From a virus, in IMG/VR virus record IMGVR_UViG_3300017694_000094, positions 1 to 58,314 of that record: 58,314 bases of DNA. One strand, written 5' to 3'. A model generated the notes under the pieces. The model saw only the letters and a program-made list of their open reading frames with translations, ran no database searches and was not told the DNA's origin. The translations under genes were made by a program, and so were the position numbers. Below are positions 1 to 58,314 of this stretch, piece by piece. The first letter of the stretch is position 1; the number at the start of each line of letters is the position of its first letter.

Positions 1-123
1 CCTCCGGGCTTTCGGCTGGCTGTGCGGGTTCAGGCGTCATGGGGTTGGTCCTTGGTGGAGGCGGCGAGGGCGCGGGCGCGGAGGGCGGCTGCGGTGAGAG
101 CGAGCGCGGGGGTGGCTGCTTCA
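1..123. repeat. terminal direct repeat copy 1 (assembly overlap / circular closure)
   Basis: Read base by base: 1-123 is identical to 58192-58314. The unique length is 58,191 bp. Confidence 0.95.
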
Positions 124-12039: not shown

Positions 12040-12071
12040 GCAGCCCCTGCGGTCACGGTCGCAGGGGCTGC
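12040..12071. terminator. convergent (bidirectional) terminator hairpin
   Basis: Perfect 12-bp stem GCAGCCCCTGCG / CGCAGGGGCTGC with an 8-nt loop, between the convergent gene ends. It overlaps the last codons of the giant ORF. Confidence 0.6.
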
Positions 12072-32222: not shown

Positions 32223-32684
32223 CTACGTTCTTTCCACTGTCGCGGTGACCAAGTTGGTTTGCGCGGTCTGTTGCGGGTTGCCGCTATCCGTCACAGTACA
32301 AAGAAAGCGGCCCGTTCGGCTGCTGCCCGAATTGAGCAAGCCTGCGGTCGCGAACGATGTGGTCGCAGACGACGGACTGTTGATTTGGAAGCTACCGCCG
32401 TCGAACTGCGTCCATGCGTATGTGTATGGCGGAGTTCCCCCGCTTGGCGTCGCCGTTGCCGGCTGCGTGCTGCCAGCAGCATTGTTCGTGGTTCCGTTCA
32501 CTTCCCGCTGCGTCGCAGCCGTTAGCGTGGTCGTGGCGGAGCGACCGCTGAAATCAGCGAAGGATAGCGGCCCCGACGCGGGCGCGCCGCCCTTGCCGTA
32601 GAACCCGGCAGGAAACGGCGTGGAGCGCGCGAGCGAGAACTCGTCCGCGATCTGGTACAGGCTGGGGTTCGTGCCGAGCGTCAC
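32223..32684 (-). CDS. tail-fibre-associated protein with Ig-like (PKD/HYR-type) segment
   Basis: GGTPPYTYAWTQFDG motif. 4-nt overlap with the tail-fibre gene. Confidence 0.5.
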   Translation of the reverse strand: MTLGTNPSLYQIADEFSLARSTPFPAGFYGKGGAPASGPLSFADFSGRSATTTLTAATQREVNGTTNNAAGSTQPATATPSGGTPPYTYAWTQFDGGSFQINSPSSATTSFATAGLLNSGSSRTGRFLCTVTDSGNPQQTAQTNLVTATVERT

Positions 32685-34153
32685 GGCGCGGTTGCGCCGA
32701 TGACGTTGCCCGCGACGCGCAGCGTGCCGCCGCTGTCGATCGATGCGACCAGCGTGCCGCCAATCACGAACCCGAACTTATTGGTGGTGCGATCGTACTG
32801 GATGTAATCGTTGGTATCGAAGACGTGGATTGGCACCGCGCCTGCCATATCGAGGTAGTGGTTGGCGTCGCGTCGGATAGCGCCGGTGAACGTAGCGCCC
32901 GCAAGCGGCGCATACAGCGCTGGATTGAGATTTCCCGAATGATAGACATTGTTGCCGCCCTGCTGAAGCGCGCCAGTGAAGTTGGCACCCGACAACAAAG
33001 CGTAACCCGAACCGCCGCCGGTCACCGCCGCTTGGACAAAGGCGGTAGTAGCGATTTGGGTATTGTTCGTGCCCGCTCCCGCGGTCGGCGCGGTTGGTGC
33101 GCCAGACAATGCTGGCGACGCCAATGGTGCATACACTGCGGGGTTAAGGTTGCCGGCGTGCCAGACCGAGAAGCCGCCGATAGTCATCGATGCGGCGGCG
33201 ACTGCACCAGAAGCATTAAAATTGACTGAGGCCACGGTGCCCGCGGAACTAAAGTTAGCCGCCGACACGTTTCCGGAAAAAACCGCCCCTGTGAGCGGCG
33301 CATACAGGCCGGGATTTAGGTTGCCAGAATGCCAGACCGGGAACTGGCTTCCTCCTATAAGGACATTGGTAGAGGCACGAAGCGTGCCGCCTACGCTGAC
33401 ATCATTAGTGAAAGATGCTCCGGATAGCGGGGCATAGTTGGCGGGGGCAAAATTGCCCTGATGCCAAACCGGGAACCCGCCAACCGTGATCTGAGTGCCA
33501 GCAGCGATTGTCGTGCCCGCATTGAGCGAACCCGGCACTGCTGTACCTGCTCGGGTGACGACTAAAGCATCAGCGGCAAACTGATTCTCTCGGACCCTCC
33601 AAGCGTCCAAGCCGGGTGCAATGCCCGTGGAATAGTTCCCGACAGAGTTGCCGTAGGTAATGTATGCGGCGTTAGCGCCGCCGCTAACAAGCGCAGAGTT
33701 GGTAACAATGCTTGGCGCGGTTACTGCGCCAGTAAAGGTCGGGCTGTTTACTGGTGCATAACTGCTCGGGACAAAATTGCCGCCGTGCCACACCTGATTT
33801 CCCGCCTGCGTCAGCGCGCCCGTGACGTTCAGCGTGCCCGTTAACGCCCCAGCGCCACCCGACGACAGGCGGAACAGCGTCGCGTTATCGGCTGCGTTGC
33901 GAACGATCAGGGCATCATCGCCGGTGTAGAGGAACGTGGTGTCGCCCCCGTCGCCGCCGAGCGCCGCCGTGTTGCCGACGCGCAGCTTCTTCCCCGCCGC
34001 CATGATCGGATCGCCGGACAGGAGCGCGTTGCCGTTGATGTCGGCGCGGACGAGGCGCACACCTTGGATGCGCCGCGCGGTGCCGCCGCGGGATACGACG
34101 AACTGGTCAGCGTCGAGGACGACGCCACCGTCTGGCAGATTGCCGATGTCCAT
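32681..34153 (-). CDS. tail fibre protein with at least 5 copies of a VWH-GN-P-YAP repeat
   Basis: Repeats such as GNQVWHGGNFVPSSYAPVNSPTFTG, FPVWHQGNFAPANYAPLSGASF, FPVWHSGNLNPGLYAPLTGAVF, FSVWHAGNLNPAVYAPL and NNVYHSGNLNPALYAPLAGATF. Confidence 0.75.
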   Translation of the reverse strand: MDIGNLPDGGVVLDADQFVVSRGGTARRIQGVRLVRADINGNALLSGDPIMAAGKKLRVGNTAALGGDGGDTTFLYTGDDALIVRNAADNATLFRLSSGGAGALTGTLNVTGALTQAGNQVWHGGNFVPSSYAPVNSPTFTGAVTAPSIVTNSALVSGGANAAYITYGNSVGNYSTGIAPGLDAWRVRENQFAADALVVTRAGTAVPGSLNAGTTIAAGTQITVGGFPVWHQGNFAPANYAPLSGASFTNDVSVGGTLRASTNVLIGGSQFPVWHSGNLNPGLYAPLTGAVFSGNVSAANFSSAGTVASVNFNASGAVAAASMTIGGFSVWHAGNLNPAVYAPLASPALSGAPTAPTAGAGTNNTQIATTAFVQAAVTGGGSGYALLSGANFTGALQQGGNNVYHSGNLNPALYAPLAGATFTGAIRRDANHYLDMAGAVPIHVFDTNDYIQYDRTTNKFGFVIGGTLVASIDSGGTLRVAGNVIGATAP

Positions 34154-34163
34154 CGTCTTCCCC

Positions 34164-36326
34164 TTAGCGCCTCAGCCCGCGGGCTGAGATGTGATACGTG
34201 ACAGCCGTCAGAACGTGCGATTCCTCTATGGCAGAAGCGCCCGCAATTTTCAGCGAAAAGTTCCGCGCCGAGATGCCGAAATATGCCTCCGCGACCGTTT
34301 CGATCTGCGAGGCGTAATAGAGTTCGTTCGACCCCAGCCCATCGATCGCGCCGCTGCCCGGCGTCACCACCAGCTGCTGCGGTTCCTCGCCCGGCTGCGC
34401 ACCGAGTTCGATGTCGATCGACACGTTGAGCGTGACCTTGCTGGTCGCCTCCATGTCCATCGTGACCTTGTGCGCGCGCTTCAGCACCTGCGGAGAGCCG
34501 AAGTTGTTGAATGGCAGGCGCAGGTAATGCTCGATCACGCGCCCGTCGAAGCTGACGCCGCGGTCCATCTCGTACACGAAGCCGTCGTCCGCGCCGATGA
34601 AGATCCGCTCCGCGCCGTTGTCCTCGACCGATGCCGCGCAGGTCACCACGACGCCCAGGTTGACCGGCAACGCCTCCACCTGCTTCTTGCCGAACAGGAA
34701 CACCAGCGCGGTGCCGTTGCGGAAGAACAGCCAGTATTGGCTCTTCGAGCGAACGATCAGGCTGGCGGTCGGGTCGACGCCATCGCGTCGCAGATCCGCC
34801 AGCAGCGGCTCGATAAAGCCGGACAGCGTGCCCGTCTTGAAATTGCCGTAGGCGGACGTAGCGGTCAGGTCGCGCAGGCCGCGGTTGTCGAGGTAGACCG
34901 GCTGGCCGATGCGCTGCGCAGTCCACGGCAGCGCGCCGGCCTCGTCGCTCAACTCGCGCAATTCGTAGGTCGCGGCGTCGGTGCCGTAGAGCATGTGGAC
35001 GCTTGACGCCCCGAGGATGCCGAGCGCATCGGGCACGGACAGGAAGTCGGTGATCTCGTCGCCGATGCCGATCTCGCCCGCGCCCACGACCGCGTTGAAC
35101 TGGCGCGGCTCGCCCACTTCGCTGAATTGCACCGACCCGCCGGGGAACGCGAGGAACAGCGAACCCTTATGCTCGGCGATGCGCGTGGGAGTGTCGATCG
35201 CCATGCCGGTTGAGATCTCAATGATCGACGTTCCATCGAACTCGAACGCCTTGCCGACTCCGTTGACGCCGTACACCCGGCGCTTGTTCGATGCGCCGTA
35301 GAAGTTCTCGGTGATGAACGAATAGCGCCCGCCGGGCGGGAAGGCGTTCGTCAGCGCGTCGCCGCTCGCGGTGAATGCGGTTGTCGCGCCGACCTTGACC
35401 GGCTGCCCGGCCACGAACGTACCCACCTTGTTGACCACGTAGGCGCGACCGGCGGCGGTGCCTGCGGTGAAGGTGCCGCTATCGACGATGATGCGGCGCA
35501 CCTCCGCGGACGCCCCGCCCGCTTGGGTGATCGTCACGCCTTCGCCCGGTTGGAACGACCCGGCGGTGAACGACAGCACCAACTCGGACGCCGCCTCGAT
35601 CCAGCCGTCGCCGAGAACGACCAGCACAATAGGGTCGCCGCCGATCGTGATCGTCTCGCCGCCAATCTCCAGATTGCCGACCTGCTCGTCGTCATCCAGC
35701 ACCGAGTAATACGGGATGCCGGCCGTACCCGCGACGTTATCGCGGACTGCATACGCCTTGTTCTCGCTGAACCAGATCCCGCGCACCGGTCCCGCACCGG
35801 GTACGGGCAGGATCACGGAGCGCAACCGGTTCGCCGCCTCTGCCTTCAGCATGTCGCCGTCATACGGGCCATAGCTGGTCGGCGCGGTGTTGACCGGCCC
35901 GGCCTGCACAGCGGCGGCGGTAGGCGTCAGGATCGGCTTCGCATCGGCGAACAACCCGGTTGCAGGGACCACGAACAGCCAGCCCGTGGCGTCGCCTGCG
36001 GCATAGCTGCCGGATTCGAGGAAGGGCGGCGCGACGAGGAAGCCGCTGGCGGATGGTAGCGGCCCGCCACTGTCCTGCGTGATGCGGTCACCGGTCACCA
36101 GCGCGCCGAGCGCCGCCGTGCCCTGAATGAAATAGATCGCGGCCACCGTCGCCGTGCTGGGCGCGGTCTGGCCGTCAAAGCGCTCGTACCCGCTGATCCG
36201 CTTGTAGCCGGACATGACCGGCTCATAATTGAGCGCCGCCACCACCCGGCCGGGGATCAGCCCGAGCGCGGGGGTGATGAGGTCGAGGCCGCCGCTGAGC
36301 GGGAACGATACCGGCTGCTGGGTCAC
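34164..36326 (-). CDS. large tail protein (720 aa; nozzle / tubular-B-like by position)
   Basis: GTG 36326 forms a GTGA overlap with the upstream stop. Called from size and its position between the adaptor-like gene and the fibre. I recognised no motif. Confidence 0.55.
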   Translation of the reverse strand: MTQQPVSFPLSGGLDLITPALGLIPGRVVAALNYEPVMSGYKRISGYERFDGQTAPSTATVAAIYFIQGTAALGALVTGDRITQDSGGPLPSASGFLVAPPFLESGSYAAGDATGWLFVVPATGLFADAKPILTPTAAAVQAGPVNTAPTSYGPYDGDMLKAEAANRLRSVILPVPGAGPVRGIWFSENKAYAVRDNVAGTAGIPYYSVLDDDEQVGNLEIGGETITIGGDPIVLVVLGDGWIEAASELVLSFTAGSFQPGEGVTITQAGGASAEVRRIIVDSGTFTAGTAAGRAYVVNKVGTFVAGQPVKVGATTAFTASGDALTNAFPPGGRYSFITENFYGASNKRRVYGVNGVGKAFEFDGTSIIEISTGMAIDTPTRIAEHKGSLFLAFPGGSVQFSEVGEPRQFNAVVGAGEIGIGDEITDFLSVPDALGILGASSVHMLYGTDAATYELRELSDEAGALPWTAQRIGQPVYLDNRGLRDLTATSAYGNFKTGTLSGFIEPLLADLRRDGVDPTASLIVRSKSQYWLFFRNGTALVFLFGKKQVEALPVNLGVVVTCAASVEDNGAERIFIGADDGFVYEMDRGVSFDGRVIEHYLRLPFNNFGSPQVLKRAHKVTMDMEATSKVTLNVSIDIELGAQPGEEPQQLVVTPGSGAIDGLGSNELYYASQIETVAEAYFGISARNFSLKIAGASAIEESHVLTAVTYHISARGLRR

Positions 36327-37030
36327 CGACGATCCATCGGCGGCGAACCGGCGGCGGTGATGTCGGGCAACAGGTCGCGCGCCATGTCGCGGTAGTTGTT
36401 GCTGAACTCCATCTGCGCCGTCTGGAGCGACTGCGGCGCTTCGTCGCTCTCCGCCATCAGCATGATCGCGCGCTGCCAGATCGCGTCGTGGAAACGCGCG
36501 GGCATCTCGGGAACGTCGGTGTCCGCGGCGAGTACCTGGGGTGTCTTGCGGTACTCGCCGCGAACCTTGTACGCCTTGTCGGGCGTTTGCCCGATCTTCA
36601 GCAGATTGTCGTACCCGATCGCCCAATAGGTCGGCCGGATCGCATCATGCACCCCGAAGTCGAACGATTGCCGCCACTGCACATAGTCAAGCTGGCGGAG
36701 CCACTGTTCGTCCTTCCGTCCGATCGCCGGGTTGTAGAGCGACAGCGCGGGTGCGCGTGGCGTCTCTTGCACCCATTCGGCAAAGCGCGGTGCAATGCCG
36801 AAGTCGAGCGGGGAATAGCTGTTCTTGCCGGCGACGAGATCGCCCTCGAACTCTGCGCGCAGGAAGCGCCAATCGGGATTGGCGTTCTGGATCTTGATCC
36901 ACGCGCCACGCACCCACCCGACGCACTGCGCCTGACGGCGGGGCAGTGCCCCTACCGTCGTCGTGGGAGCCGGGCCGATCGCGCCGCTTTCGCGGGCGAG
37001 GTCGGCACAGAGTTCGAGGAACGTCGCCAT
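36323..37030 (-). CDS. tail adaptor / tubular-A-like protein (by position)
   Basis: 235 aa. The MATFLELCADLARESG N-terminus resembles adaptor proteins of BPP-1/epsilon15-like podoviruses as I recall. Weak call. Confidence 0.5.
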   Translation of the reverse strand: MATFLELCADLARESGAIGPAPTTTVGALPRRQAQCVGWVRGAWIKIQNANPDWRFLRAEFEGDLVAGKNSYSPLDFGIAPRFAEWVQETPRAPALSLYNPAIGRKDEQWLRQLDYVQWRQSFDFGVHDAIRPTYWAIGYDNLLKIGQTPDKAYKVRGEYRKTPQVLAADTDVPEMPARFHDAIWQRAIMLMAESDEAPQSLQTAQMEFSNNYRDMARDLLPDITAAGSPPMDRR

Positions 37031-40684: not shown

Positions 40685-40881
40685 GCGGTGTAGTTGGGGG
40701 ATGACGTTGGTTCAGTCCGAGTTGCTTCGGAGACGATCCGCCGCAACTCGCCGATCGCGCCGCGTGCGCGATTGGTCGTGTCGAGGTCGAGCGGGCTTTC
40801 CAACTCGACCTGCAATTCCTTGATGCGCTTCTCGATGCGCTCGGCGAATGCTCGCCATTCGGGATGTGAAGGATCAAACAT
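40681..40881 (-). CDS. small hypothetical protein (66 aa)
   Basis: ORF track. Overlap-coupled on both sides. Confidence 0.5.
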   Translation of the reverse strand: MFDPSHPEWRAFAERIEKRIKELQVELESPLDLDTTNRARGAIGELRRIVSEATRTEPTSSPNYTA

Positions 40882-43139
40882 CAGCCAACCCCCACGCCAA
40901 CGGCTTCGCGCTCGGTGCCGCCCTCGCTGCGCGCAATCGCGGCTCGGCGTTCTTCGACGGCGATGTTGGCCGCGTGGACCCGCTCGCTGCTGTCCGTCTT
41001 CATCTTCTCCTTCGCCAGTTCGGCGTTGACCTGCGCCAGCGTGAGATCGTTCTTCATGGCGTATTCGGCCATCCAGCGTTCGCGGTCCATCTCGGCAAGC
41101 TGTAGTTTCGTCCGGCCGTCTTCCTGCGCGATCTGGAGGCGCGTGGCGTTCGGGTCCGTGCCCTGCTGCGCGGCCTGCTGCGCCGCGGCCATCGCCTGCT
41201 GCTCGGCGGCGATGTTCTGCTCGGCCTTATCCTTGTCGACCAAGATCTCGTCGGGCGGGATCATCATGGTCTGAACGGTCTTCACCAGCGTCTCGCGGAC
41301 CTTCAGGTAATGCTTCAGGACCGGGTGCATCGTCCACTGGTTGGCGATCATCATCAGGTTGATCGACTGCATCTCCTTGACCATCAGCACGGACGTACCG
41401 CGCGCGTCGATCTGCATGTCGCCCTTGACCGAATCGTCGGGGTTGAACTGCATGTTCCAGTCGTAGAACCGCCGGATTGTCGGCGTGGTCATGTCGTCGT
41501 CCCACGCCTTCACGATGCGGCGGAACACGACGTTCGCGCTGTTGAACAGCATCGACGTGGTGCCGACCGGCTGCACGGTCGCGCCCGCCTCGCCCTGAGC
41601 GACCTGCGGCATCGACACTTCCTCGTCGACGAAATCGCGGCCGATTTTGATGATGCCGGCGAGTTCGTTCGAGTTGATCGGGATGTTGAACACCTCGAAC
41701 GGCTTCTGCTGCGTCGCCATCGCGGTCGAGGTCTTCAGCCACACCTTCAGCGGCTTCATGCCCCAATCGCCGTCCTGCGGCACGATGCTGCTCTTATCGA
41801 CCACGACCTGCGGGCCAACCGACAACCCGGAGTTGTCGAGCATCATACGCCACGCGCCGTTGATCGCTTTCGCGCTCGGTCCCATGATGTGCGGAACGCC
41901 GATGCCGAAGATCGACGTTTCGCCTTTGAGGAAGTTGAACACCGAGTAGAGGCTGTCACCGCTGTCGAGCGGCCATTCCTCCGCGATGCGCAGCACCTCG
42001 TCTCCGCAAAAGTGGACGATGACACGGTGATCTTCGAGCGGATCCTTCTCTTCCAGGAACCGCCTCGCATCGTCGGGGCGACCTGCCGCGTCCAGCAGCA
42101 GCGCGATCTCGTCGCACTCCAGCGGGCCGTGGTATTCCCACATGACGTAGCGATCCTTGATCTGCTCGCCTTCGCCGTTGATCGCGCGCAGTTCGGCGAT
42201 ATGCCCGGTGTCGCTCTGGTTCATGCCGAGCGGGCCAAGTTCCAGCAGGCGGCGGACGGCGGCCTTGTTAAAGCCCAGCTTGCGCGCATACTTGCGCAGG
42301 TCGCGCTTCGTCGGGAGCGAGCGCTCAAAGGTGAACTCCGCTTCCTCGATTCGGCGCGCGGACATATCGGGGAAGAAGTGCCACGGGTCGATGCGTATCG
42401 CCTCGGGCTGCGGGTCCGGCAGTTCGGCCATCTCCCACACGCGCTTGCCGGTGTTCTGGTCGTCGTTGCCGCGCCATTCCTTGCGGACGCGGTTCGAGGT
42501 CAGCGGTCCCTTGATGATCCCGGTTCCGAGCCGGCAGGCATCCTCGATCGCGTCGCGCGACTGCGCCACCCACCGCGACTGCACAAGCTGGTCGTCGATC
42601 GCCTCCTGCATGGCGTCGGACGCCTTCTTGGCGGCCTCCATCTCTTCGTTCGTCTGCTTCGCCTTCTGCGCGTAGGCGTTGGCCTGCTCGATCGTGGCGG
42701 CTGCAACGTCCGGCTGCTCGGCCTGCTGCGCGGCATTGGCATCGTCGACCGCTTTCTGAGCGGCCAAGACGGCCTCCTTCGCCGCGGCGGCCAGCTTCGG
42801 CAGCGGCGTAGGCGCGATGCCCCAATTCCGATCATCGGTCGGGAACAGCAAATCGCCCAGGCGGGCGGCCCATGAGTTCGTCTTGGATTGCGTCAGCTTG
42901 AAGTTCGCGGTCGACGCGCCCGCTTTTTTCATGTTGGCGAGGTCGGCCTCGGTATAGTGGCCGAAATACTGGCGCAGATCCTCCAGCCAGCGGAGTTCGA
43001 TCAGCACGCGGCGGCTGACCTGCTCGCGCGCGAGGCTATCCAGCCGGCCGATGATGGGGCGGCAGGCTTCGAGGATTTCGTCCTCGCGCTTCTCCGCATC
43101 CATTTCCTCTACGGCGACCAACGGCCCCTGCATCTGCAT
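40881..43139 (-). CDS. portal protein
   Basis: 752 aa, immediately downstream of the terL nuclease fragment. Called from size and position. Has a C-terminal charged tail. Confidence 0.7.
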   Translation of the reverse strand: MQMQGPLVAVEEMDAEKREDEILEACRPIIGRLDSLAREQVSRRVLIELRWLEDLRQYFGHYTEADLANMKKAGASTANFKLTQSKTNSWAARLGDLLFPTDDRNWGIAPTPLPKLAAAAKEAVLAAQKAVDDANAAQQAEQPDVAAATIEQANAYAQKAKQTNEEMEAAKKASDAMQEAIDDQLVQSRWVAQSRDAIEDACRLGTGIIKGPLTSNRVRKEWRGNDDQNTGKRVWEMAELPDPQPEAIRIDPWHFFPDMSARRIEEAEFTFERSLPTKRDLRKYARKLGFNKAAVRRLLELGPLGMNQSDTGHIAELRAINGEGEQIKDRYVMWEYHGPLECDEIALLLDAAGRPDDARRFLEEKDPLEDHRVIVHFCGDEVLRIAEEWPLDSGDSLYSVFNFLKGETSIFGIGVPHIMGPSAKAINGAWRMMLDNSGLSVGPQVVVDKSSIVPQDGDWGMKPLKVWLKTSTAMATQQKPFEVFNIPINSNELAGIIKIGRDFVDEEVSMPQVAQGEAGATVQPVGTTSMLFNSANVVFRRIVKAWDDDMTTPTIRRFYDWNMQFNPDDSVKGDMQIDARGTSVLMVKEMQSINLMMIANQWTMHPVLKHYLKVRETLVKTVQTMMIPPDEILVDKDKAEQNIAAEQQAMAAAQQAAQQGTDPNATRLQIAQEDGRTKLQLAEMDRERWMAEYAMKNDLTLAQVNAELAKEKMKTDSSERVHAANIAVEERRAAIARSEGGTEREAVGVGVG

Positions 43140-43155
43140 CCTGTTTCCCCAGCCT

Positions 43156-43890
43156 TCAGTTGTAGAGGTTGCGCACCGGCTGTCCTACCAACAATTCGAC
43201 CGGCGGGATAGTGAACCGCGCAAGCGATGTGGGCCGAACGCCGTAGCGCGTCGCGTCCATAAGGTGGTCGTTGCTCTTCACGATGTTGCCGTTCTTGTCG
43301 CGCCGGTAGATCCGGTATTCGGACAGCCAGTTCACACACGACGCGAACACCTTCAGCCGACCGGTCGCCAGCCGCAGGTACATATCGAGGATGCCCGCAT
43401 CGACGCCGTTGTCAGCCGGGACGATATGCAGCCCCAGGTTGAGGTAGACCTGCATCAGCTGCTCGCCGTCGCGCTGGGACCGGCCCTTGGCCGCCGGATC
43501 GATCACACCGCGCAGCCACTCGCCGCGCGCGCGGATCGCCGCGGCGTGCGCGGACGGTTCGGCTTGACCGCGGTAATGCTCGCTGGTGACGTAGAGGATG
43601 TCCTGATCGCGATCCCACGCGAAGAAGGCCGCAGCCGTTCTCTTCCAGCCCACGTCGAGGCCGTAGCCGCGCAGGAAATGCGCAGGGATCTTGAACGGGG
43701 GCACCACGAACTCGCTCTCCGCGATCGGGTAGATCGCGCCCTGCCCGAGCGAAGGGATACCCTTTGAGCGCGCGTCGCGCAGGTGCGGCGGCGTCTCGTT
43801 CAACATCTTCCTCCGCGTTGCCTCGTCGAGATGGGGCACGTCAGCCCATCCCGCCGAGACAAGGTATTTGGATTCGCTGATCTCCGGCAT
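43156..43890 (-). CDS. terL: terminase large subunit, C-terminal nuclease (RNase H-like) fragment
   Basis: KYLVSAGWADVPHLDEATRRKML...SKGIPSLGQGAIYP...GLDVGW...NDHLMDATRYG. Has its own ATG, which overlaps the upstream stop (TGATG 43888-43892). Confidence 0.8.
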   Translation of the reverse strand: MPEISESKYLVSAGWADVPHLDEATRRKMLNETPPHLRDARSKGIPSLGQGAIYPIAESEFVVPPFKIPAHFLRGYGLDVGWKRTAAAFFAWDRDQDILYVTSEHYRGQAEPSAHAAAIRARGEWLRGVIDPAAKGRSQRDGEQLMQVYLNLGLHIVPADNGVDAGILDMYLRLATGRLKVFASCVNWLSEYRIYRRDKNGNIVKSNDHLMDATRYGVRPTSLARFTIPPVELLVGQPVRNLYN

Positions 43891-46187
43891 CAGGGCGCAG
43901 CGTTGGTGGCGTCAGTGCCATCCGGGTTGAATGCCCCGTTATATGAACCGTCGCCCCGCTTGAGAGCGCCGTTCACCTTGGGCGCGAGTGCCGATCGAAC
44001 CCGCGCCTCAATCTGCGCCCATGTCGCATTGGCCCAATCGAACGCTTCCAGAAGCATCGTCGGGTTCGAGGCGAAATGGTTGCTGTAATCGGGCAGGCCG
44101 TTCAGCGTGCCGCCCAGCGCCGTAACCCCGTCGCTCGTGTCGAACACGCCGCCATTGCTGACCTGCCCGTAGAAGATGGACCGGAGCAAGGCGTTCGGCC
44201 CCTGATAGCCGGCCGCGCCTTGGTTCTGATCGGTGCGGGCGGTGAAACTGTTGTTGTTTGCGCCGGGCATCACGTCAATCGTGGTGTCGCGCAGCGGCAC
44301 AACCGGGCGCTGAAGAACGGTCGTGATGTTGCGCATGGTCGACGCCTTGCTTTCCGACACGCCAACAGCGGCGGTGATCGTTCCTGCGATCACGAGGCCG
44401 TTGATATTGTACGTGTTCGCGTGCGCGCCGCTCGTGACGTTCGCGGCCAGCGTGCCGAAAATACCCTGCGCCAGCCCGTCACCGTCAGCCTGAATGCTCC
44501 AGCATCGGTTGAAGGTGGCGACGCAATTCCGGTTCTGCGCGTTCATCTGGAAGGCATCGGCATGGTTCGAGGTCGCGACGCCGCGCACGTCGAGACGATC
44601 CGGCGCGATCCACCGGCAATCGTTGAACGTCCAGATTTCGGTGCCGTCGCCCGTACCGGTGATATCGGCGTTGTCCCAGAAGTGGCGAATCCGCATCCGG
44701 TTGACCGTGACGTTCGTCACCGTGCCAGCGGGATTGTTGTTCGAACCGGCGCAACCCGCGCGCACGAACTCACCGTCGCAATCGTTCAGCGTGACCGTGG
44801 CATTGCCACCGATCGAGAACAGCGGCTTGCTCTTGTTCTGATCGGCGGTCGTGGTGTTCACGTAATAGTAGGTGCGAGTGCCGAAATGCCGGAACCGGTT
44901 GACCGTGACCGCTGACGCGAGGTTGCCGGATCCGTCCAGGCCGATCTGGAAACGCGACACGACGTTCGTCCCGTCGCTGTCGCTCGTCATGAGGTCGTTG
45001 AATGTCACGTTCGAGCAAGAGCGGGCCAGCCATGCCGCCGGCCAACGGACGCGAGCCGTATCGTGAGCGCGGAAGATAGTCGGGTTGGTGAACCGCCACG
45101 TCGCGATCAGCTTGCCCGTTGGCTGCACTGCGACGCCCAGATAGTCCGCGCCGGCCGCGATCTCGATCGTCTTGCCGTCCACACGCGCGCCATAGGTGGT
45201 CGGCACGGCGTTGAAGTTGTCCGCTTGCCCGAGCGTGAACACGTCCGGCAACACGTTGGCAGTGATCGTGCTGACCTCCGTTGACCCGTCCGCGAAAGCC
45301 GCCGTCACTTGGAACACCGCTTGGGTGTCTGGCAGGAAGTTCGCCGCTCCAGTCGCGCTCGGAACGGGCGTCGAGGTGCGCGCGCCCGTCGTCCAGTGCG
45401 CGGGAGTGCCAGGCGAAGGGGCTGCAATCGTCCACGACGTGGGGGCCTCCGCTCCCGTCTTCAGAAGCCCGAGTTCAGGATTCGCCAACGGGACGCCACC
45501 AATGCCGGAAGCTGTCTGCCGCCCGAAGCCATAAGTGACGAACTCGTTCGTTCGGCGTCCGCTGAATACGGCGATCGTTTTCGCATCCGAACTCACCGTC
45601 ACGGTCGCGCCCAGAAGGGCGACCGTGAGGCGGAAGAAGACCGGACGGTTAGCGTCGGCCGACACCGGCGTATAAGCAAGCGCAGTAGGGGCGTCGGCCG
45701 ACGCGAGGACCGTGCCTGTCGTGGCATCAACGAGTTCGCGCTTGGTCGCGAGATAGCCGAGCGGTGGGACGCCATCGCTGAATACCATTGCGACGCCGAC
45801 CTGCGGGGAGCCGACGATGGTCGGAAGCAGGGTGAATACGGGCGTGCTGCCGCCCGAGCGGTACGTTCGACCCGCGGCTATCAATGCGCCAAGCTGCGAT
45901 GCGTCAGGCTGGAAGGGTACGCCAGTCGGCAGGAAGTCGAGACGACCGTTGATCGTGACCGGCACGCGCGACCCGTAGGTTCGCTGGGACAGCAGGATGA
46001 AGCCGTCCGGCACAGTGGTCAGGAACTGCTGCGTCTGGATGTTCAGAGCCTGGAGGGCCGCAACCTCCGCATCGCTCGCGACGTAATCTTCGCCGGTCGG
46101 GATGTAACTGACCCGGCCATTCAGGCCGATCGGTACGCGCGACCCAAAAGGCGAAGCGGCGCGGGGGATGTGGATGGTCGTCGGCAT
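43890..46187 (-). CDS. right-handed beta-helix protein (polysaccharide depolymerase / tailspike-like), 765 aa
   Basis: ATG 46187. Repetitive N/T/G-rich strands (VTVNRFRHF, VTVNRMRIRHF, SNHADAFQMN). Has an N-terminal roughly 55-aa duplication (GSRVPIGLNGRVSYIPTG / GSRVPVTINGRLDFLPTG). Confidence 0.6.
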   Translation of the reverse strand: MPTTIHIPRAASPFGSRVPIGLNGRVSYIPTGEDYVASDAEVAALQALNIQTQQFLTTVPDGFILLSQRTYGSRVPVTINGRLDFLPTGVPFQPDASQLGALIAAGRTYRSGGSTPVFTLLPTIVGSPQVGVAMVFSDGVPPLGYLATKRELVDATTGTVLASADAPTALAYTPVSADANRPVFFRLTVALLGATVTVSSDAKTIAVFSGRRTNEFVTYGFGRQTASGIGGVPLANPELGLLKTGAEAPTSWTIAAPSPGTPAHWTTGARTSTPVPSATGAANFLPDTQAVFQVTAAFADGSTEVSTITANVLPDVFTLGQADNFNAVPTTYGARVDGKTIEIAAGADYLGVAVQPTGKLIATWRFTNPTIFRAHDTARVRWPAAWLARSCSNVTFNDLMTSDSDGTNVVSRFQIGLDGSGNLASAVTVNRFRHFGTRTYYYVNTTTADQNKSKPLFSIGGNATVTLNDCDGEFVRAGCAGSNNNPAGTVTNVTVNRMRIRHFWDNADITGTGDGTEIWTFNDCRWIAPDRLDVRGVATSNHADAFQMNAQNRNCVATFNRCWSIQADGDGLAQGIFGTLAANVTSGAHANTYNINGLVIAGTITAAVGVSESKASTMRNITTVLQRPVVPLRDTTIDVMPGANNNSFTARTDQNQGAAGYQGPNALLRSIFYGQVSNGGVFDTSDGVTALGGTLNGLPDYSNHFASNPTMLLEAFDWANATWAQIEARVRSALAPKVNGALKRGDGSYNGAFNPDGTDATNAAP

Positions 46188-46194
46188 GGCTACC

Positions 46195-46782
46195 TCAACG
46201 GTTCGCTTGCGTGGCGGGGAGAGAAAGGGCGAAAACCTGCGTACCGGTCGCGGCTGCAACTTCCACCGCCGCGCCAAGAATACTGATCGAGGCGACCGAC
46301 TGAACACAGGTCGCGCCGGTGAAGCCAGTATTGGTCGTGGACGTGACCTTGCACTTCACGCCCGGCGCACCGGTTGCACCGATCGCCGTGAAGAACATGG
46401 GGTAACTGGCCGCGCCCGCCGGCAGGGGAGCGGGGTTGCCGGCGCTATCCAGCCATGCGCAGGTCGTCGACCCGCCGCACAGAATCGCGCCGCCAGCGCT
46501 GACCGTGAAGATTCCGGTCCGGCTGATGCGGTTGTCAGCCGCGTTGACCAAGCGGCAGTTCGTGCCGCTGCCGGTGGTGCCCCCTGGCACTTCGGTCGGC
46601 GGGACCACTGCCATAGGCTGGCACGCGGCAGCGGCGGCGGCGGCGGCGGCATCCGCCTTGGCAACGGCTGCGTCGATTGTCTGCTGTACCGACGAGGGCA
46701 CAACGACGACAGGCGGGTAGGTTGTTTGCGCTGCGGCCGGGGCGGCGAACAGCGCGACGAGGGATGCGAATAGGTAGCGCAT
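46195..46782 (-). CDS. secreted Cys-containing protein (Sec signal peptide)
   Basis: MRYLFASLVALFAAPAAAQ followed by a mature region with 6 Cys. Confidence 0.6.
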   Translation of the reverse strand: MRYLFASLVALFAAPAAAQTTYPPVVVVPSSVQQTIDAAVAKADAAAAAAAAACQPMAVVPPTEVPGGTTGSGTNCRLVNAADNRISRTGIFTVSAGGAILCGGSTTCAWLDSAGNPAPLPAGAASYPMFFTAIGATGAPGVKCKVTSTTNTGFTGATCVQSVASISILGAAVEVAAATGTQVFALSLPATQANR

Positions 46783-46785
46783 GGA

Positions 46786-47919
46786 TCAGGACTCCACGAT
46801 GTAGCCGATGGGCGTAGCGGCTTGCCCGCAGACCATAAAGACTGGCGCAGCAGTGTTCATGGTATGCGTTGCGCCCGCCGTCGCCTGAAGCGGGTAGCCG
46901 GTGGTGGTCGTGACACCGCTCGGTCCGATGTAGCATTTCACAGCCGCATCGACGGTGATCGTCAGTCGGCCGCGCCCGGCCTGCGCCGCAACGATTTGGG
47001 TTGCCGTGGTGCCGACCGACACCTGCCCGCTGGTCAGCGTCGCCGTTCCCTTGGCGACCACGTACTGGCCGGTGGTGTCACCGCGCATCCGGTCCCATGT
47101 CGCACCATTGAACACCAGTCCCTGCCCGACGACGTACATGCCATTTGTCGAGGCGGTAGCATCCACCAGTGATGCACCAGCGACCTGCGCCTGCAAACCG
47201 CTGGTGCCGCCGATCGCAGTGTACAGCAGACCGCGTGACGTAAACTGCGCCTGCACCCGCTGCCCTGCACTGTACGCGGGAAGAGTCGTAACGAATGCTC
47301 CACCAATTGGAACAGGGTTCCCAGTTTGCGCCACGCCATCAGCGACCGTTCCTCCCGCGATCACGGAGCCTAGCGCGTTGGTGCCCGCCGGAAGCGGCTG
47401 TTCGAGGACAGTCGCGAGGCGACCATTGCTATCGCACCGCATCGAACCGGTCCACATATCAGACCATGTGACGGGCGAAGCGCGGTACTGGCACCCGACA
47501 ATATCGGCGGTGGTCGTGGTGGCGGGCATCGGGCCGGGCGGGAGCGGCGCATGGCTGCTCAACCCAACCTTCAGGCGGCCGGTCGAGGTAAGCGTGAGCG
47601 GCTGCGTGGTGCCAACCGTGTACGCCTGATCGCCGGACACAACTGCGGCCTGCGTCAGCCCGCCCGACTGGCCCGCCGTGGTCGATCCCTGCGCCACCGC
47701 GCTGGAACCGCCGCCACCGCCGGCAGGATCGATCACCGTCCCGTCAGCGCGGATCGGAACGACCGCCTCGACCTGAGCGATGTTGCCGTCTGCGGTGGTG
47801 ACCGCAACGCGGCCGGGGCGGCCGGGCGCGCGGTCGTCCGTTCGGACAACGGTCTGCGCGATGGATGCGGCTGGTACGGCCAAGGCGGTGACCGCCAATA
47901 GCAGGCGACGGAACTTCAT
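46786..47919 (-). CDS. secreted protein (Sec signal peptide), 377 aa
   Basis: ATG 47919 lies behind GGGAGA. Starts MKFRRLLLAVTALAVPAASIAQ, then a beta-rich Gly/Thr/Ala sequence. Confidence 0.6.
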   Translation of the reverse strand: MKFRRLLLAVTALAVPAASIAQTVVRTDDRAPGRPGRVAVTTADGNIAQVEAVVPIRADGTVIDPAGGGGGSSAVAQGSTTAGQSGGLTQAAVVSGDQAYTVGTTQPLTLTSTGRLKVGLSSHAPLPPGPMPATTTTADIVGCQYRASPVTWSDMWTGSMRCDSNGRLATVLEQPLPAGTNALGSVIAGGTVADGVAQTGNPVPIGGAFVTTLPAYSAGQRVQAQFTSRGLLYTAIGGTSGLQAQVAGASLVDATASTNGMYVVGQGLVFNGATWDRMRGDTTGQYVVAKGTATLTSGQVSVGTTATQIVAAQAGRGRLTITVDAAVKCYIGPSGVTTTTGYPLQATAGATHTMNTAAPVFMVCGQAATPIGYIVES

Positions 47920-48097
47920 GCTGATCTCCCTAGCGCACCCCGCGCGCAGGGGTATCACGACCAACCCGGTTCCGCTATATCCGATTCGCCCTCTCCTACG
48001 GACGCAGTTACCTAGCGCGGCGGTCGCGGCCCTCTCCCCCCTCAGTGACCGCCGCGCCCTCTTTCATTACCGGCCATTATCGGTTATTACCGGCGCG

Positions 48098-48213
48098 CTG
48101 CGGCGTGGCGGAATCGATAGACGCTGAAAGTCGTAAGGCGAAGCTGGGCACCGGGCTAACTCAGGCTCCGTGAAGGACCAGCGTATTCCGGGTTTGAATC
48201 CCGGCCCGCAGCA
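48098..48213 (+). ncRNA. tRNA-Leu-derived / tRNA-like element lacking a recognisable anticodon arm
   Basis: GTGGCGGAATCGATAGACGC matches the class II tRNA-Leu D-arm. T-arm CCGGG-TTTGAAT-CCCGG. 6-bp acceptor pairing CTGCGG/CCGCAG. About 115 nt long. An exhaustive 5-7-5 scan of 48125-48187 found no anticodon stem-loop. Confidence 0.4.
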
Positions 48214-49104
48214 TCATTCCTCTTCAGCGTCGTTCCACTTGCCCCAATCGCCGGACTCCAGCGGCGTGTCCTTTGCCGGGCGCATCTCTTCGGGCAGGAA
48301 CGACAGCACCGTCTCGGTCAGGCCCTCCAGCGGCGTGTACGTCATCATCGTAATGCCGCCGGTCGTCATCGTGCGGATGCGCGCCTCGTCGTACACCGAC
48401 AACTCCGGTTCCTCGTCGACCCAGATCAGGTGCTGCGCCGTGCCCTGGAATGCCTTGCGCCCCTGCGCGTAGGATTTCAGGTTCAGCTTCGACCAGCCGC
48501 CCGACGAGTGACGGATCTTGATGTTGTCGATCAGATCCTGCGCGCCCTGCTTCCACGCAAGCTGACCGGGGTTGCGGCCGATCAACTCGGTCGGGATCAT
48601 GCCCGAGCCGTCCACGCTCTTGCGCGCGCCCTGATGCTGGATGTCGCCCAGCAGGATCACCTGGATAATGTCGCGCGTCGTCTCGTTGGTGTCGCCAGCT
48701 GCGATCGCGCGGATCGGGTGACGGAAGCGTCGCCCCTCCCACCAGTCGGGATAGATGCCGGTCAGGTGGCACGTCGTCTCGTACCCGCCGACGACGGTCT
48801 TGCCGACGCGGTTGCCGGCCATGAAGCAGCGCTCGACGTACTGCGCGCCCGCCTTGAAGAACTCCATGTGCCGCGGGTAGCCCGAGCGCGGCCAGTAATC
48901 CGACCACTCCCCATCGCCGACCTTCTTGAACTTCTCGGGGAACAGGTTCTCGAACTTGCGGTACTTCTGCTCCCACCGCTCTTGCTCGTAGATCTGGAGA
49001 AGGCTCTCGACGCGCTCAGCGCCCAGCCGCTCCACGATCTCCTGACCGGAGAGTTCTTGGACTCCGGCAGCAGTCAGGTGATCGCGAAGCCAGCCGGCGA
49101 ACAT
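48214..49104 (-). CDS. terL: terminase large subunit, N-terminal ATPase fragment
   Basis: Walker A AGNRVGKT (48796-48819), Walker B LIWVDEEP (48406-48426), then TYTPLEGLTETV. Ends with a 24-codon tail after LPE. Confidence 0.8.
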   Translation of the reverse strand: MFAGWLRDHLTAAGVQELSGQEIVERLGAERVESLLQIYEQERWEQKYRKFENLFPEKFKKVGDGEWSDYWPRSGYPRHMEFFKAGAQYVERCFMAGNRVGKTVVGGYETTCHLTGIYPDWWEGRRFRHPIRAIAAGDTNETTRDIIQVILLGDIQHQGARKSVDGSGMIPTELIGRNPGQLAWKQGAQDLIDNIKIRHSSGGWSKLNLKSYAQGRKAFQGTAQHLIWVDEEPELSVYDEARIRTMTTGGITMMTYTPLEGLTETVLSFLPEEMRPAKDTPLESGDWGKWNDAEEE

Positions 49105-49105
49105 G

Positions 49106-49252
49106 CTACCTCTTCTTCGGGCGGCGGCGCAGCCTGCCCCATGCAGCCAATCGCTCAGCCTTTTCCTCGAACTCGCGATCGCGGCGCTTGCAACGCGCCA
49201 TGTGCGCGACAGCCCAAGCCTTCGTGCCAGGGCGATAGCCGGCCTTCTTCAT
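49106..49252 (-). CDS. small basic protein (48 aa)
   Basis: ATGA-coupled start at 49252. G/C-ending codons. The stop is 1 nt from the terL start. Confidence 0.45.
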   Translation of the reverse strand: MKKAGYRPGTKAWAVAHMARCKRRDREFEEKAERLAAWGRLRRRPKKR

Positions 49253-49452
49253 GCGTCCTGCCCCGGTTTGATCTCGACAGATCGGATAGCGCAGCCGACC
49301 CAGCCCATGTGGGTATGCTCCCAGCCGTGGATGCACCACGGCGGGTCTTGCATCCCAAGCTGGTTGAACTCCTGCTGGAGATGCCCCAGCAGCTTGTGCG
49401 GGCCGAGCATCATCGTCTCGTTCCGCCAGCGCTCACGCGGTTGCCACGTCAT
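49249..49452 (-). CDS. small hypothetical protein (67 aa)
   Basis: ATGA-coupled start at 49452. G/C-ending codons read by hand. Confidence 0.5.
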   Translation of the reverse strand: MTWQPRERWRNETMMLGPHKLLGHLQQEFNQLGMQDPPWCIHGWEHTHMGWVGCAIRSVEIKPGQDA

Positions 49453-49783: not shown

Positions 49784-49947
49784 CGGGCGGATGCCGGCAG
49801 AAGCCGCGTGGCGGTGCGGACGGGGATGCCCGCGCGCCATGCGGCTTCCTTGAACGTGCGGGAGGAAGCCAGCGCCGCGGTGAGACGGTCGCGCTTCTCG
49901 TCGGTCGCGCGGGTCCGCGCCGCGTTCGCTGGCCCCCATCCGCGCAT
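49780..49947 (-). CDS. small HTH-like protein (55 aa)
   Basis: TFKEAAWRAGIPVRTATRLL. Coupled start at 49947. Confidence 0.45.
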   Translation of the reverse strand: MRGWGPANAARTRATDEKRDRLTAALASSRTFKEAAWRAGIPVRTATRLLPASAR

Positions 49948-50729
49948 CAGATCAGCGCCTCCTTGCTGACACCGGCGCGGTTCAGCCGGTCGAGAAGGAT
50001 CTGCGCGTAGCGGAACATGGCGTCGTGCTGCTCGCCCATCGCCTGCGCTTCCTCGTTCGGCACGCCATCCCACGCGGGCTGTTCGAAGAAGCGGCCGAGC
50101 GCCTGCCACTTCGCGTTCAGCTGACGGTACTCGTCGATCATGCGGTCGACGTGCGCCGGGTAGCCGGACGGCGGCTGCGGCGGGGTCTGCGTTTGGCCGG
50201 CGAGGAAGGCGCGGAACGCCTCCGCCCGCTCGACGATACGCGGCGTCGGCGCGCTGGGATCACCAACGGCGAGGTGCAGCGCCGTGTGGCGATGCTGCTG
50301 GTCGACCTGCTCGGCGGTCGGCCGATAAACATCGTTGCTGGCGAAGTTCAGCGCGAACGTGTCGGGCGGCAGGTCATCGCTGCTGCCCGGCTCGTCGGCC
50401 GCGACATAGGTCGCCTCGAAAATGTCGGGCTTGCACGGGTAGATCTCGCCCTTCACGCCGCGGATGATCCAGTCGCCGACATCCGCCATCATCGTGCCTT
50501 CCTTGGTCACGATTTGGAGATATTGCGCCAACGGGTCTTTTGCCGTGGGCTGCCAACCAGCCCATCCCTCGGCTCCGACGCGAGCGCACAGCGCATCCTT
50601 CAGCCATTCCGGCAATGCGCTGAAGCAATTCGCCGTCGCGCCAGCCGGGGCGTTGAACGGCTCCAGCCGGTATTGCACGGCATCGATGGTCACCGGCTGC
50701 TTGCGCCAGCGGGTCGGGGTGTCGGTCAT
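49947..50729 (-). CDS. hypothetical protein (260 aa)
   Basis: ORF track. Protein-like two-domain sequence. Confidence 0.6.
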   Translation of the reverse strand: MTDTPTRWRKQPVTIDAVQYRLEPFNAPAGATANCFSALPEWLKDALCARVGAEGWAGWQPTAKDPLAQYLQIVTKEGTMMADVGDWIIRGVKGEIYPCKPDIFEATYVAADEPGSSDDLPPDTFALNFASNDVYRPTAEQVDQQHRHTALHLAVGDPSAPTPRIVERAEAFRAFLAGQTQTPPQPPSGYPAHVDRMIDEYRQLNAKWQALGRFFEQPAWDGVPNEEAQAMGEQHDAMFRYAQILLDRLNRAGVSKEALI

Positions 50730-53040: not shown

Positions 53041-53544
53041 CTACTTCGCCGGTAGCGGGGTGACGTTCTTCAGGCTGCCGAGCGCGCCGTCGATGATCGA
53101 CGCCAGCTTCTGCGCGCGCTCATGCTGCGGGATCTGGTCACCGCCGCCCGCCATGTCCGGCGTGTTGAGCGTGCGGACGTTCGAGTAGACGCCGCCCATC
53201 TCCTTCGCTGCCTGCTCCATGATCTGGAGCGCCTGACCGCGGTTCTTCGCCTTGATCGCCTCGTCGAACATCGTCTGCATCTGGGCGAGGCGATAGCCTT
53301 GGTTCGCCAGCGGGACAGTCTCGACGCTGGTCAGGTACGCCTTGCGTGACGCCTCGAACAGCACGCGCCACTTCTCGGAAAGTTCGCGACCGGCGTAGCG
53401 CGTCGGGTCGTAGCAGACGATCGCCTGGATGGTGACATCCTCGTTCGTCTCTTCCTTCAGCCAGCGCAGAACAGCAGCCGGCGTCTCGTAGCACGCCAGC
53501 CGGCGGACGATCTCGGCTCTGACCTCTTCGGGCATTCTCGACAC
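53041..53544 (-). CDS. terS: terminase small subunit (DUF2280-like)
   Basis: EVRAEIVRRLACYETPAAVLRWLKEE...YDPTRYAG...KWRVLFEASRKAYL...PLANQGYRL...EQAAKEMGG matches the DUF2280 TerS pattern as I recall it. Confidence 0.7.
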   Translation of the reverse strand: MSRMPEEVRAEIVRRLACYETPAAVLRWLKEETNEDVTIQAIVCYDPTRYAGRELSEKWRVLFEASRKAYLTSVETVPLANQGYRLAQMQTMFDEAIKAKNRGQALQIMEQAAKEMGGVYSNVRTLNTPDMAGGGDQIPQHERAQKLASIIDGALGSLKNVTPLPAK

Positions 53545-57722: not shown

Positions 57723-58231
57723 TCGCCTCCGTTCTGAAGGGCGGCGTCCACGATAGCGTCAACCGCTTCGACATGGCTGGCGTAGGGGTCGTAGGCACCG
57801 TCGCCGCTCGCAACATACCGGGCAGCTTGCTTGGCGGCAGTTAAGGCGGCTCTGAGCCGCTCTGCTTCTAGCGGTTGACCTGCGGGCGGATTGGCTGATT
57901 GCGAAGTCACCCAAGATCGATAATGCCACCAGTCGCGCCAGCCGTCGTCAACCGATCCACGAGACATCGCATCAACGGAAGATTGCACCCATCCGGCACG
58001 GTAAGCCGCTTCGGCTTCTTCCTCCACCGCCCCGCGCTCGGTCGGGCGTGCGGTAGAGGCGGCGAGCATGGCGGACCAACAACGGATCGCGTCCAATGCT
58101 GCCTCATGCTCCCAACCGGGTACGGCGTTGTACGCTTTGGCTCCTGCCTCGATCATTTCTTCGGTCGGCTCGACAGGAACGATCGCCCTCGCCTCCGGGC
58201 TTTCGGCTGGCTGTGCGGGTTCAGGCGTCAT
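57719..58231 (-). CDS. hypothetical protein (170 aa); start lies in terminal repeat
   Basis: ORF track. Follows 30..407 across the circular junction. Confidence 0.6.
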   Translation of the reverse strand: MTPEPAQPAESPEARAIVPVEPTEEMIEAGAKAYNAVPGWEHEAALDAIRCWSAMLAASTARPTERGAVEEEAEAAYRAGWVQSSVDAMSRGSVDDGWRDWWHYRSWVTSQSANPPAGQPLEAERLRAALTAAKQAARYVASGDGAYDPYASHVEAVDAIVDAALQNGGE

Positions 58232-58314
58232 GGGGTTGGTCCTTGGTGGAGGCGGCGAGGGCGCGGGCGCGGAGGGCGGCTGCGGTGAGAGCGAGCGCGG
58301 GGGTGGCTGCTTCA
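58192..58314. repeat. terminal direct repeat copy 2
   Basis: Identical to 1-123. Genes 30..407 and 57719..58231 abut across this junction. Confidence 0.95.

Follow-up and report, generated by a model that had tools for sequence, protein, structure and literature searches.

How does a phage make its large terminase (TerL), the enzyme that packages its DNA, when the gene lies in two pieces with unrelated genes between them? The question is raised by a viral DNA of 58,314 nt (IMG/VR record IMGVR_UViG_3300017694_000094, positions 1 to 58,314; hereafter the window), in which one open reading frame (ORF) carries the ATPase motifs of TerL (terL-N, 48214–49104, minus strand, 296 amino acids (aa)) and another carries its nuclease motifs (terL-C, 43156–43890, minus strand, 244 aa). 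Exactly 4,323 bp (43891–48213) separate the two, and no second terL-like sequence is present anywhere in the window. We find that the break lies inside the ATPase domain and recurs in many related phages and prophages. Our analysis suggests that TerL is probably made here as two separately translated polypeptides that reassemble, that the fission arose long ago and has become fixed in a large clade, and that the gap between the halves is a permissive slot for other genes.

Two halves of one large terminase

An initial annotation of the window had reported the coordinates of both ORFs, the size of the gap and the common frame of the halves, all of which were borne out; the common frame is real but carries no signal, since it is expected by chance in one case out of three. 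The ATPase and nuclease motifs listed there are likewise present, and the Pfam families Terminase_6N and Terminase_6C agree with them. terL-N comprises an N-terminal helical region and the additional-strand, conserved-glutamate (ASCE) core of the terminase ATPase, with a Walker A motif (AGNRVGKT, residues 96–103), a Walker B motif with the catalytic glutamate (LIWVDEEP, residues 226–233) and a TYTP coupling motif, the residues of which are invariant in 16 of 16 aligned homologues. It matches Terminase_6N with an expect value (E) of 9e-13, over model positions 1–153 of 215 only, and phrog_31467, a family of unknown function (E 4e-76). terL-C matches Terminase_6C (E 7e-11) and has the nuclease motifs GLDVGW (D79) and DHLMDATRYG (D208, D212); D79, D131, D141 and D212 are invariant in its alignment. 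The catalytic motifs are thus intact in both halves.

Both proteins align to adjacent parts of the single TerL of cultured phages (EBPR podovirus 1 gp39, StenR_269, Baldr, vB_Pun_Y3 and Pmp11), and are therefore two parts of one TerL family; this homologue comparison, proposed in the annotation as a check on its claim, supports that claim. EBPR podovirus 1, StenR_269, vB_Pun_Y3, Pmp11 and Pelagibacter phage Baldr are also the closest cultured phages by TerL or portal, and their TerL is fused. The window shares with single-chain TerLs (P22 gp2, D6E TerL, EBPR podovirus 1 gp39) the homologous halves, the catalytic motifs and the position beside the portal gene, and differs in having two chains, broken between the ASCE core and the lid. 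Of the traits of Terminase_6 (T4/P22-like) enzymes, the ASCE ATPase motifs and an RNase-H-like nuclease with its acidic residues are found, whereas the canonical arrangement of ATPase core, lid and nuclease on a single polypeptide is not the case here.

The position of the break follows from several alignments. When residues 1–272 of terL-N were joined in silico to residues 4–244 of terL-C, the Terminase_6N match widened to positions 1–214 and rose from 48.8 to 67.6 bits, and in naturally fused relatives the match likewise runs across the junction. The Terminase_6N model is thus divided between the ORFs, with positions 1–153 on terL-N and about 154–214 on terL-C. By sequence, the P22 nuclease (4DKW) matches terL-C with E 8e-24, but the alignment begins only at residue 48. 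The AlphaFold2 (AF2) model of terL-C, with a predicted local distance difference test score (pLDDT) of 86, has short strands and two helices (residues 23–32 and 35–43) followed by the nuclease fold; Foldseek matches it to 4DKW (E 6.5e-17, template-modelling (TM) score 0.81), and it has more aligned columns to the full-length TerLs of D6E, HK97 and T4 than to nuclease-only structures. A profile of fused and joined sequences places SAGWDDVPHL onto D6E TerL from residue 199, and in D6E the lid includes Y213–R224 and the interdomain linker is 230–241 (PMC5727402). From the agreement of the Pfam, P22, D6E and AF2 alignments, the cut lies in a surface loop of variable length, downstream of the helix that follows the coupling motif and ahead of the last ATPase strand. 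terL-C thus consists of the last ATPase strand (KYLVSAGW), the lid subdomain, the interdomain linker and the RNase-H-like nuclease; the strand and lid helices take up its first ~47 residues (43750–43890, minus strand) by Pfam, profile and AF2.

The break therefore lies inside the ATPase domain, about 45–60 residues upstream of the ATPase/nuclease linker at which the annotation had put it. The N-terminal piece, which had been taken for a complete ATPase domain, covers only positions 1–153 of the 215 in Terminase_6N, and the joined match that reaches 214 makes GWADVPHL, previously read as a nuclease motif, the last ATPase strand. The junction LPE/ISESKY that a precise deletion between two Pro-Glu codon pairs would create is a coincidence, as fused relatives have a variable loop of 5–20 residues at the break point.

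terL-N ends in a tail of 24 residues (EMRPAKDTPLESGDWGKWNDAEEE) after an invariant FLP motif. All N halves in the alignment end 6–30 residues past FLP, and the 24-residue tail is kept in relatives of 74–79% identity as well as in L170, an independent assembly (Logan SRR30224794) of a close relative whose terL-N is 95% identical. The G+C content at third codon positions of the tail is 0.76 in frame, as compared with 0.63 and 0.50 out of frame. Composition and conservation both indicate that the tail is coding sequence, as had been suspected.

A break shared among relatives

Each half was searched against a collection of 5.8 billion proteins, and the best 120 matches per half were examined. All were half-length: 207–304 aa for terL-N (identity from 100% down to 52%) and 204–262 aa for terL-C, with an identity floor of 52–58% for the two halves. 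The C halves share the start MPxIS.SKYLV.AGWDDVPHL, and the half-length homologues are found on viral contigs of 55–62 kb and in bacterial chromosomes.

We then compared the layout of 164 related loci from viral contigs, bacterial genomes and assemblies, in which the halves were placed by tblastn; 150 of them hold both. The gene is one fused ORF in 23 of the 150. In 59 loci it is split into abutting or overlapping halves, in 24 the halves are 60–400 nt apart, and in 44 they are separated by 0.4–7.5 kb of highly variable genes. A non-redundant set of 134 sequences, made up of the window, TerLs of cultured phages and related loci, divides in the same order into 24, 53, 18 and 39. A start codon stands at the position of the window's Met1 in all 39 unique abutting junctions that could be aligned to residue 1 (ATG in 30, GTG in 8, TTG in one), and the stop/start overlap at abutting junctions is usually −1 or −8. 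Many of the loci are prophages in chromosomes of Alpha-, Beta- and Gammaproteobacteria and of Acidobacteriota, some of them in complete genomes; members include prophages of Aminobacter, Azospirillum and Sphingopyxis and an element in Sphingobium yanoikuyae.

In a neighbour-joining tree of the concatenated halves the window falls inside a large clade without a fused member. The halves of its nearest neighbour (loci L006/L007) are just 4 nt apart, and the two-gene state is therefore older than the 4.3-kb insert. The initial description of a terL split by 4.3 kb of unrelated genes thus holds in that such genes do lie between the halves, but not in that they split the gene.

L170 keeps the same gene order (terL-N, three cargo genes, terL-C, portal) at 83–94% nucleotide identity. 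Against it, the ratio of non-synonymous to synonymous substitution rates (dN/dS) is 0.14 for terL-N and 0.04 for terL-C (97.5% aa identity), as compared with 0.05 for the portal (97% aa identity). By these values both TerL halves are under purifying selection. The half-length homologues, the dN/dS ratios and the conserved starts together point to a stable layout shared by a large phage and prophage family rather than to a broken gene, which is also how the annotation had read it (a stable two-polypeptide terminase, not a freshly broken one).

Some loci deviate from this layout. Those with a terL-N homologue and no terL-C within 10 kb downstream (L104, L119) or 8.1 kb downstream (L105) may have a larger slot, or halves dislocated to separate loci. 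In the Xanthomonas phage DES1 (L165, OK624832.1, 31002–33335) terL is broken at another site, in the order 118-aa 'terminase family protein', 165-aa ORF and 398-aa 'large terminase protein', probably by an intron or homing-endonuclease insertion within the ATPase core.

The slot between the halves and its surroundings

What occupies the gap? terL-N is followed by a non-coding spacer of 294 nt (47920–48213, as defined by sequence between the terL-N stop and the next gene) and by three cargo genes, all on the minus strand: gene 1 (46786–47919, 377 aa, start set by the L170 orthologue), gene 2 (46195–46782, 195 aa) and gene 3 (43890–46187, 765 aa; P0241, gene callers using the 765-aa start). The TGA of gene 3 overlaps the ATG of terL-C (TGATG), which is ordinary translational coupling within an operon. 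An AGGGAG ribosome-binding site in the spacer stands directly before the ATG of gene 1, and the spacer contains neither a promoter-like site nor a minus-strand terminator-like one. The ~150 nt immediately downstream of the terL-N stop (48061–48213) are missing from L170 by blastn; this stretch, which holds the hairpin CCGGGATTCAAACCCGG, may be what is left of an earlier cargo, or a small indel. The hairpin looked like a T-arm and was considered as a tRNA-derived att site; ARAGORN finds no tRNA there and the loop is non-canonical.

None of the three cargo proteins has a Pfam, PHROG or NCBIfam match. A word-index search returns only the window's own protein and that of L170; an exhaustive HMMER search returns 43 relatives, whose Pfam content is uninformative. 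The product of gene 1 is rich in Ala, Gly and Thr and has a signal-peptide-like N-terminus (MKFRRLLLAVTALAVPAASIAQT); it is 74% identical to that of L170 (dN/dS 0.16, dS 0.95). That of gene 2 also starts with a signal-peptide-like segment (MRYLFASLVALFAAPAAAQT) and is 87% identical (dN/dS 0.09). Clear Sec-type signal-peptide-like N-termini on two proteins with Ala/Gly/Thr-rich bodies are unusual within a late structural operon; in Bcep22, the annotation gives a potential signal peptide to gp70, a structural protein of the virion.

Gene 3 has a dN/dS of 0.41. Its product is 70% identical to that of L170 over residues 1–399 and 29% identical in the C-terminal part, which indicates that the C-terminal half has been replaced relative to L170. 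Its N-terminal module of ~110 aa recurs in otherwise unrelated cargo proteins of three relatives (L001, L008, L022) and as stand-alone proteins of 133–145 aa, and its body recurs behind other N-termini. Such a modular pattern is that of a tail-fibre or tailspike-like architecture; no family model confirms it, there being no tail-fibre or beta-helix match in Pfam or PHROG for the 765-aa protein or the homologues of its C-terminal body. In P0259 (954 aa) the same ~110-aa module is joined to a FAD_oxidored body (PF12831, E 7e-36), which is odd for a presumed virion anchor. Over the three genes dS to L170 is 0.57–0.95, versus 0.20–0.37 for the core genes; the cargo genes are real and diverge much faster than the core.

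In the relatives 108 of 140 cargo ORFs are singletons. Recurrent cargo includes HNH/EndoVII endonucleases, tail fibre, tail spike, Peptidase_S74, beta-helix, GH5, DNA invertase and Tad2 proteins; other cargo that could be recognised comprises Mtd_N, an integrase, helix-turn-helix regulators and a methyltransferase. In the closest JGI relative, with TerL halves 78–79% identical to those of the window, the slot spans contig ends and holds at least 8.9 kb of other genes, and a protein with a GH5 cellulase domain adjoins terL-C. This turnover of genes argues that the slot is a recombination-permissive cargo site. The three-gene module of the window most likely acts in host interaction; that the slot in this lineage carries host-interaction genes has, in our judgement, an even chance of being correct.

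Base composition is even across the region, and the portal gene (40881–43139, minus strand; phrog_332, phrog_1216), whose orthologues in L003 and L168 match PF23899 (SU10_portal), lies directly downstream of terL-C in the usual terL–portal order. Since the first 123 nt of the window (1–123) are identical to the last (58192–58314), the window represents a complete genome of ~58.2 kb, either closed into a circle or with terminal redundancy, and it contains a full structural module. The small terminase is likely the DUF2280 protein encoded at 53041–53544 on the minus strand (PF10045, E 5e-27). Its gene lies ~4 kb upstream of terL-N with ~8 small genes between them, a layout that recurs in L001 and L003, and all three packaging genes are therefore dispersed.

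Elsewhere on the minus strand, 12053–25690 is a 4,545-aa ORF of DarB-like antirestriction, methyltransferase and helicase families (phrog_10089, E = 0), with 39–41% identity over ~1,900 aa to Bcep22 gp75; this giant protein is all that the window has in common with Bcep22, whose TerL and portal show no detectable relation to those described here. The 260-aa protein of 49947–50729 (minus strand) bears a crAss001_48 ('Sequestin') domain in its C-terminal part (PF21825, E 2e-15); its N-terminal part is similar to several PHROGs of unknown function, and L001 has an orthologue at the equivalent place. A 490-aa protein with short tail-fibre-type motifs (32681–34153, minus strand; phrog_2631, E 2e-14) and an 820-aa protein with a weak amidase-like region (34164–36626, minus strand) make other candidate tail proteins outside the terL slot.

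Alternatives, origin and meaning of the fission

How would a terminase in two chains work? In the arrangement that we propose, TerL-N would supply the nucleotide-binding ASCE core of the packaging ATPase, and TerL-C, translated separately, its last strand and lid together with the linker and the nuclease. The two would reassemble non-covalently by fold complementation, the strand and lid of TerL-C docking on the core of TerL-N, and the heterodimer would oligomerise at the portal and package and cut DNA as an ordinary TerL does. The gap between the genes would then have become a permissive slot in which genes are gained, lost and exchanged, holding in the window two putatively exported proteins and a modular, tail-fibre- or spike-like protein, co-oriented with the late operon, the last gene being coupled to terL-C.

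Other explanations of the split gene have to be set against this arrangement. It could be an artefact, a chimeric or mis-joined contig having put foreign DNA inside terL, as the window is an assembly-derived sequence; but L170 was assembled independently and has the same order, layouts of the equivalent kind turn up in genomes from JGI, ENA, Logan and NCBI isolates, GC content is uniform and the last cargo gene overlaps the start of terL-C, which makes an artefact practically negligible. It could also be a terL that is genuinely broken, in a defective or decaying phage whose fragments are becoming pseudogenes. Many relatives are prophages in bacterial chromosomes, prophages often decay, and the viability of this phage is presumed. 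However, the halves evolve under a constraint comparable to that on the portal, all catalytic motifs are intact, the fission with its conserved start codon recurs at identities as low as ~45% and in far more than a hundred independent loci, and the structural module is complete in a closed 58-kb circle, so that decay is highly improbable. A single TerL might, again, be restored from the two ORFs by a self-splicing intron, an intein or split intein, ribosomal bypassing or regulated excision of the 4.3 kb. terL genes are classic homes of group I introns and inteins (PMC12880540, PMC7156551), 'fractured' terminase genes with split inteins are on record (PMC2677866), the terminase of phage Hau3 is a proposed case of translational bypassing (PMC10732093), and the two ORFs do share a frame. 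Yet relatives with abutting halves still keep both the stop and the start codon, and no element that could rejoin the halves was found, in line with the initial annotation, which had recognised no intein, intron or recombinase in the gap. A scan of 42800–49400 by Rfam E-value gave no intron or other RNA family (one chance small nucleolar RNA, E 0.46), and the 294-nt spacer shows no excess of folding over shuffled sequence (z = +1.27); with no Rfam ribozyme, an unstructured spacer and conserved stop and start codons, an intron was rejected, and the same conserved codons argue against a divergent, uncatalogued ribozyme, which is formally conceivable. An intein or split intein was rejected as well: the 24-aa N tail is without a Cys or Ser start, no intein family appears in Pfam, and terL-C is collinear with fused TerLs within 8 residues (residues 8–20 align), which leaves no room for intein halves. 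A ribosome cannot bypass 4.3 kb with three selected genes. As for an excised element of the skin/sigK or 'active lysogeny' kind, no recombinase domain was found in the three cargo proteins (Pfam, PHROG, NCBIfam) and no direct or inverted repeats flank the boundaries, there being only short, chance-level matches elsewhere. Restoration of a single chain is thus very unlikely.

The two proteins might instead never meet, TerL-N acting as a phi29-gp16-like translocase and TerL-C as a free-standing headful nuclease that the portal, for instance, would bring in on its own. Packaging ATPases of the phi29 type function without a nuclease domain, and here the genes lie up to 7.5 kb apart and are not always translationally coupled. 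But the ATPase fold of TerL-N is incomplete, its last strand and its lid being encoded on terL-C, and the halves co-occur wherever a contig is long enough. In D6E the P-loop arginine is in contact with a tyrosine of the lid (Y213), and conformational change is passed on through the lid (PMC5727402). Since the strand and lid sit on TerL-C and the D6E lid contacts the P-loop, an isolated TerL-N core is unlikely to be a competent ATPase, and independent action of the two proteins is improbable.

Several points also weigh against a reassembling two-chain enzyme with a host-interaction cargo. The AF2 model of terL-N alone, from a 16-sequence alignment, is poor, having a pLDDT of 63, with values below 50 for the P-loop and residues 212–296, and Foldseek finds no match for it at E ≤ 0.001; the shallow alignment or an incomplete fold could be the cause. 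We infer reassembly into an active enzyme from the conservation of the halves and from a break that falls within one fold. For the position of the break, the joined Pfam match is stronger support than the alignment to the lid of D6E, which is weak (E 4e-4). The neighbour-joining tree is rough, with fused forms scattered over it, and does not fix how often, or in which direction, genes split or merged. None of the cargo proteins has a recognisable domain, and two carry signal peptides. Tail fibres normally do not have signal peptides. Finally, an origin through an endonuclease, as discussed below, is argued from relatives, as the window's own slot is without one.

What could have cut the gene? 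A gene of the HNH/EndoVII type (phrog_1035, E 1e-18 to 1e-24) lies directly upstream of terL-C and overlaps its start in four loci (L022, L061, L075, L116), two of which have no other cargo; no homing endonuclease is among the window's three cargo genes. Free-standing homing endonucleases are known to fracture genes, the invading element supplying a stop and a start (PMC2677866). According to the account of Friedrich et al. 2007 (PNAS) in PMC2677866, NrdA of the Aeromonas phage Aeh1 is split in this way by the free-standing HNH gene mobE, and its halves reassemble without splicing. The window resembles Aeh1 nrdA in having an essential enzyme gene as two co-oriented ORFs, each with its own stop and start and both conserved, and its relatives have HNH/EndoVII genes in the same slot, overlapping the start of the downstream half. 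It differs in that the enzyme is a packaging terminase, the fission is fixed in a very large clade and not in one phage, and the slot, which in the window has no endonuclease, is re-used for many kinds of cargo of up to 7.5 kb. A comparable series is known for RNA polymerase (RNAP) II: a single chain in the T7 type, two adjacent genes (RNAP1/RNAP2) in the N4 type, and genes separated by 0–8 unrelated genes, including an HNH endonuclease, in phages of the G7C and EE36P1 types (PMC5418858). The fused, adjacent and spaced states are the same as for TerL; the enzyme differs. As both the HNH/EndoVII configuration of the relatives and the N4-like series match, we favour fission by an endonuclease followed by re-use of the slot, an origin argued by analogy, which we hold to be possible and somewhat short of an even chance.

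Other genes in pieces resemble the window less closely. The 'fractured genes' of Dassa et al. 2009, among them a gp17-like terminase, combine split inteins (88–105 aa for the N part, 33–54 aa for the C part, 122 aa for the C part of the terminase) with a homing endonuclease, and are joined by protein trans-splicing (PMC2677866). There too, mostly in phages, the co-oriented halves have kept their original place and enclose foreign genes; the halves in the window, by comparison, are without intein sequence. In Jug phages (PMC12880540) and cyanophage Mic1 (PMC7156551) terL is interrupted by group I introns or inteins and restored by splicing. There, too, terL is in pieces, whereas the window has no intron or intein signature and conserved start and stop codons. 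The two exons of the herpesvirus terminase gene UL15 flank UL16 and UL17 and are joined by mRNA splicing. There, as in the window, ~4 kb of virion-related genes lie between two parts of a terminase ATPase/nuclease gene, but splicing yields a single protein, and the genes in between are encoded on the other strand. Interruption of terL by introns, inteins and possibly bypassed sequences, and genes in pieces for NrdA and RNAP, are thus already known. In the full-text literature that we searched, with subscription journals mostly outside its scope, a stable two-gene TerL with the cut between core and lid and a variable slot is nowhere described, nor is a series of fused, adjacent and spaced states for TerL; a prior description is possible.

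The fission might also be adaptive and not just a scar that is tolerated, the core and the lid/nuclease being kept as separate subunits and the slot serving as a rapidly exchangeable cassette for host-range or counter-defence genes. We regard this as doubtful. If it were so, synthesis of the nuclease subunit would be tied translationally to a receptor-binding gene, and a split TerL might escape the bacterial immune sensors Avs1–3 and Upx, which recognise intact TerL (PMC13601566). The clade would then also be a natural split system bearing on the need for a covalent link between core and lid in DNA translocation.

The three rival models of force generation by terminases, electrostatic for T4, 'linker-domain' for Sf6 and lid-rotation for P74-26/D6E, all hinge on the lid coupling ATP hydrolysis in the ASCE core to movement of the DNA (PMC5727402). 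Core and lid on different chains across a large clade would make the covalent link dispensable, and the clade supplies hundreds of sequence pairs for work on the interface, on co-evolution and by cryo-electron microscopy. From gene callers and annotation pipelines the halves receive names such as 'unknown function', 'hypothetical' or 'domain-containing protein', and TerL-based phage detection, completeness scoring and phylogeny therefore mis-handle these phages. The slot itself is a newly recognised hot spot for receptor-binding proteins, homing endonucleases and anti-defence genes, and is of use for host-range prediction and engineering.

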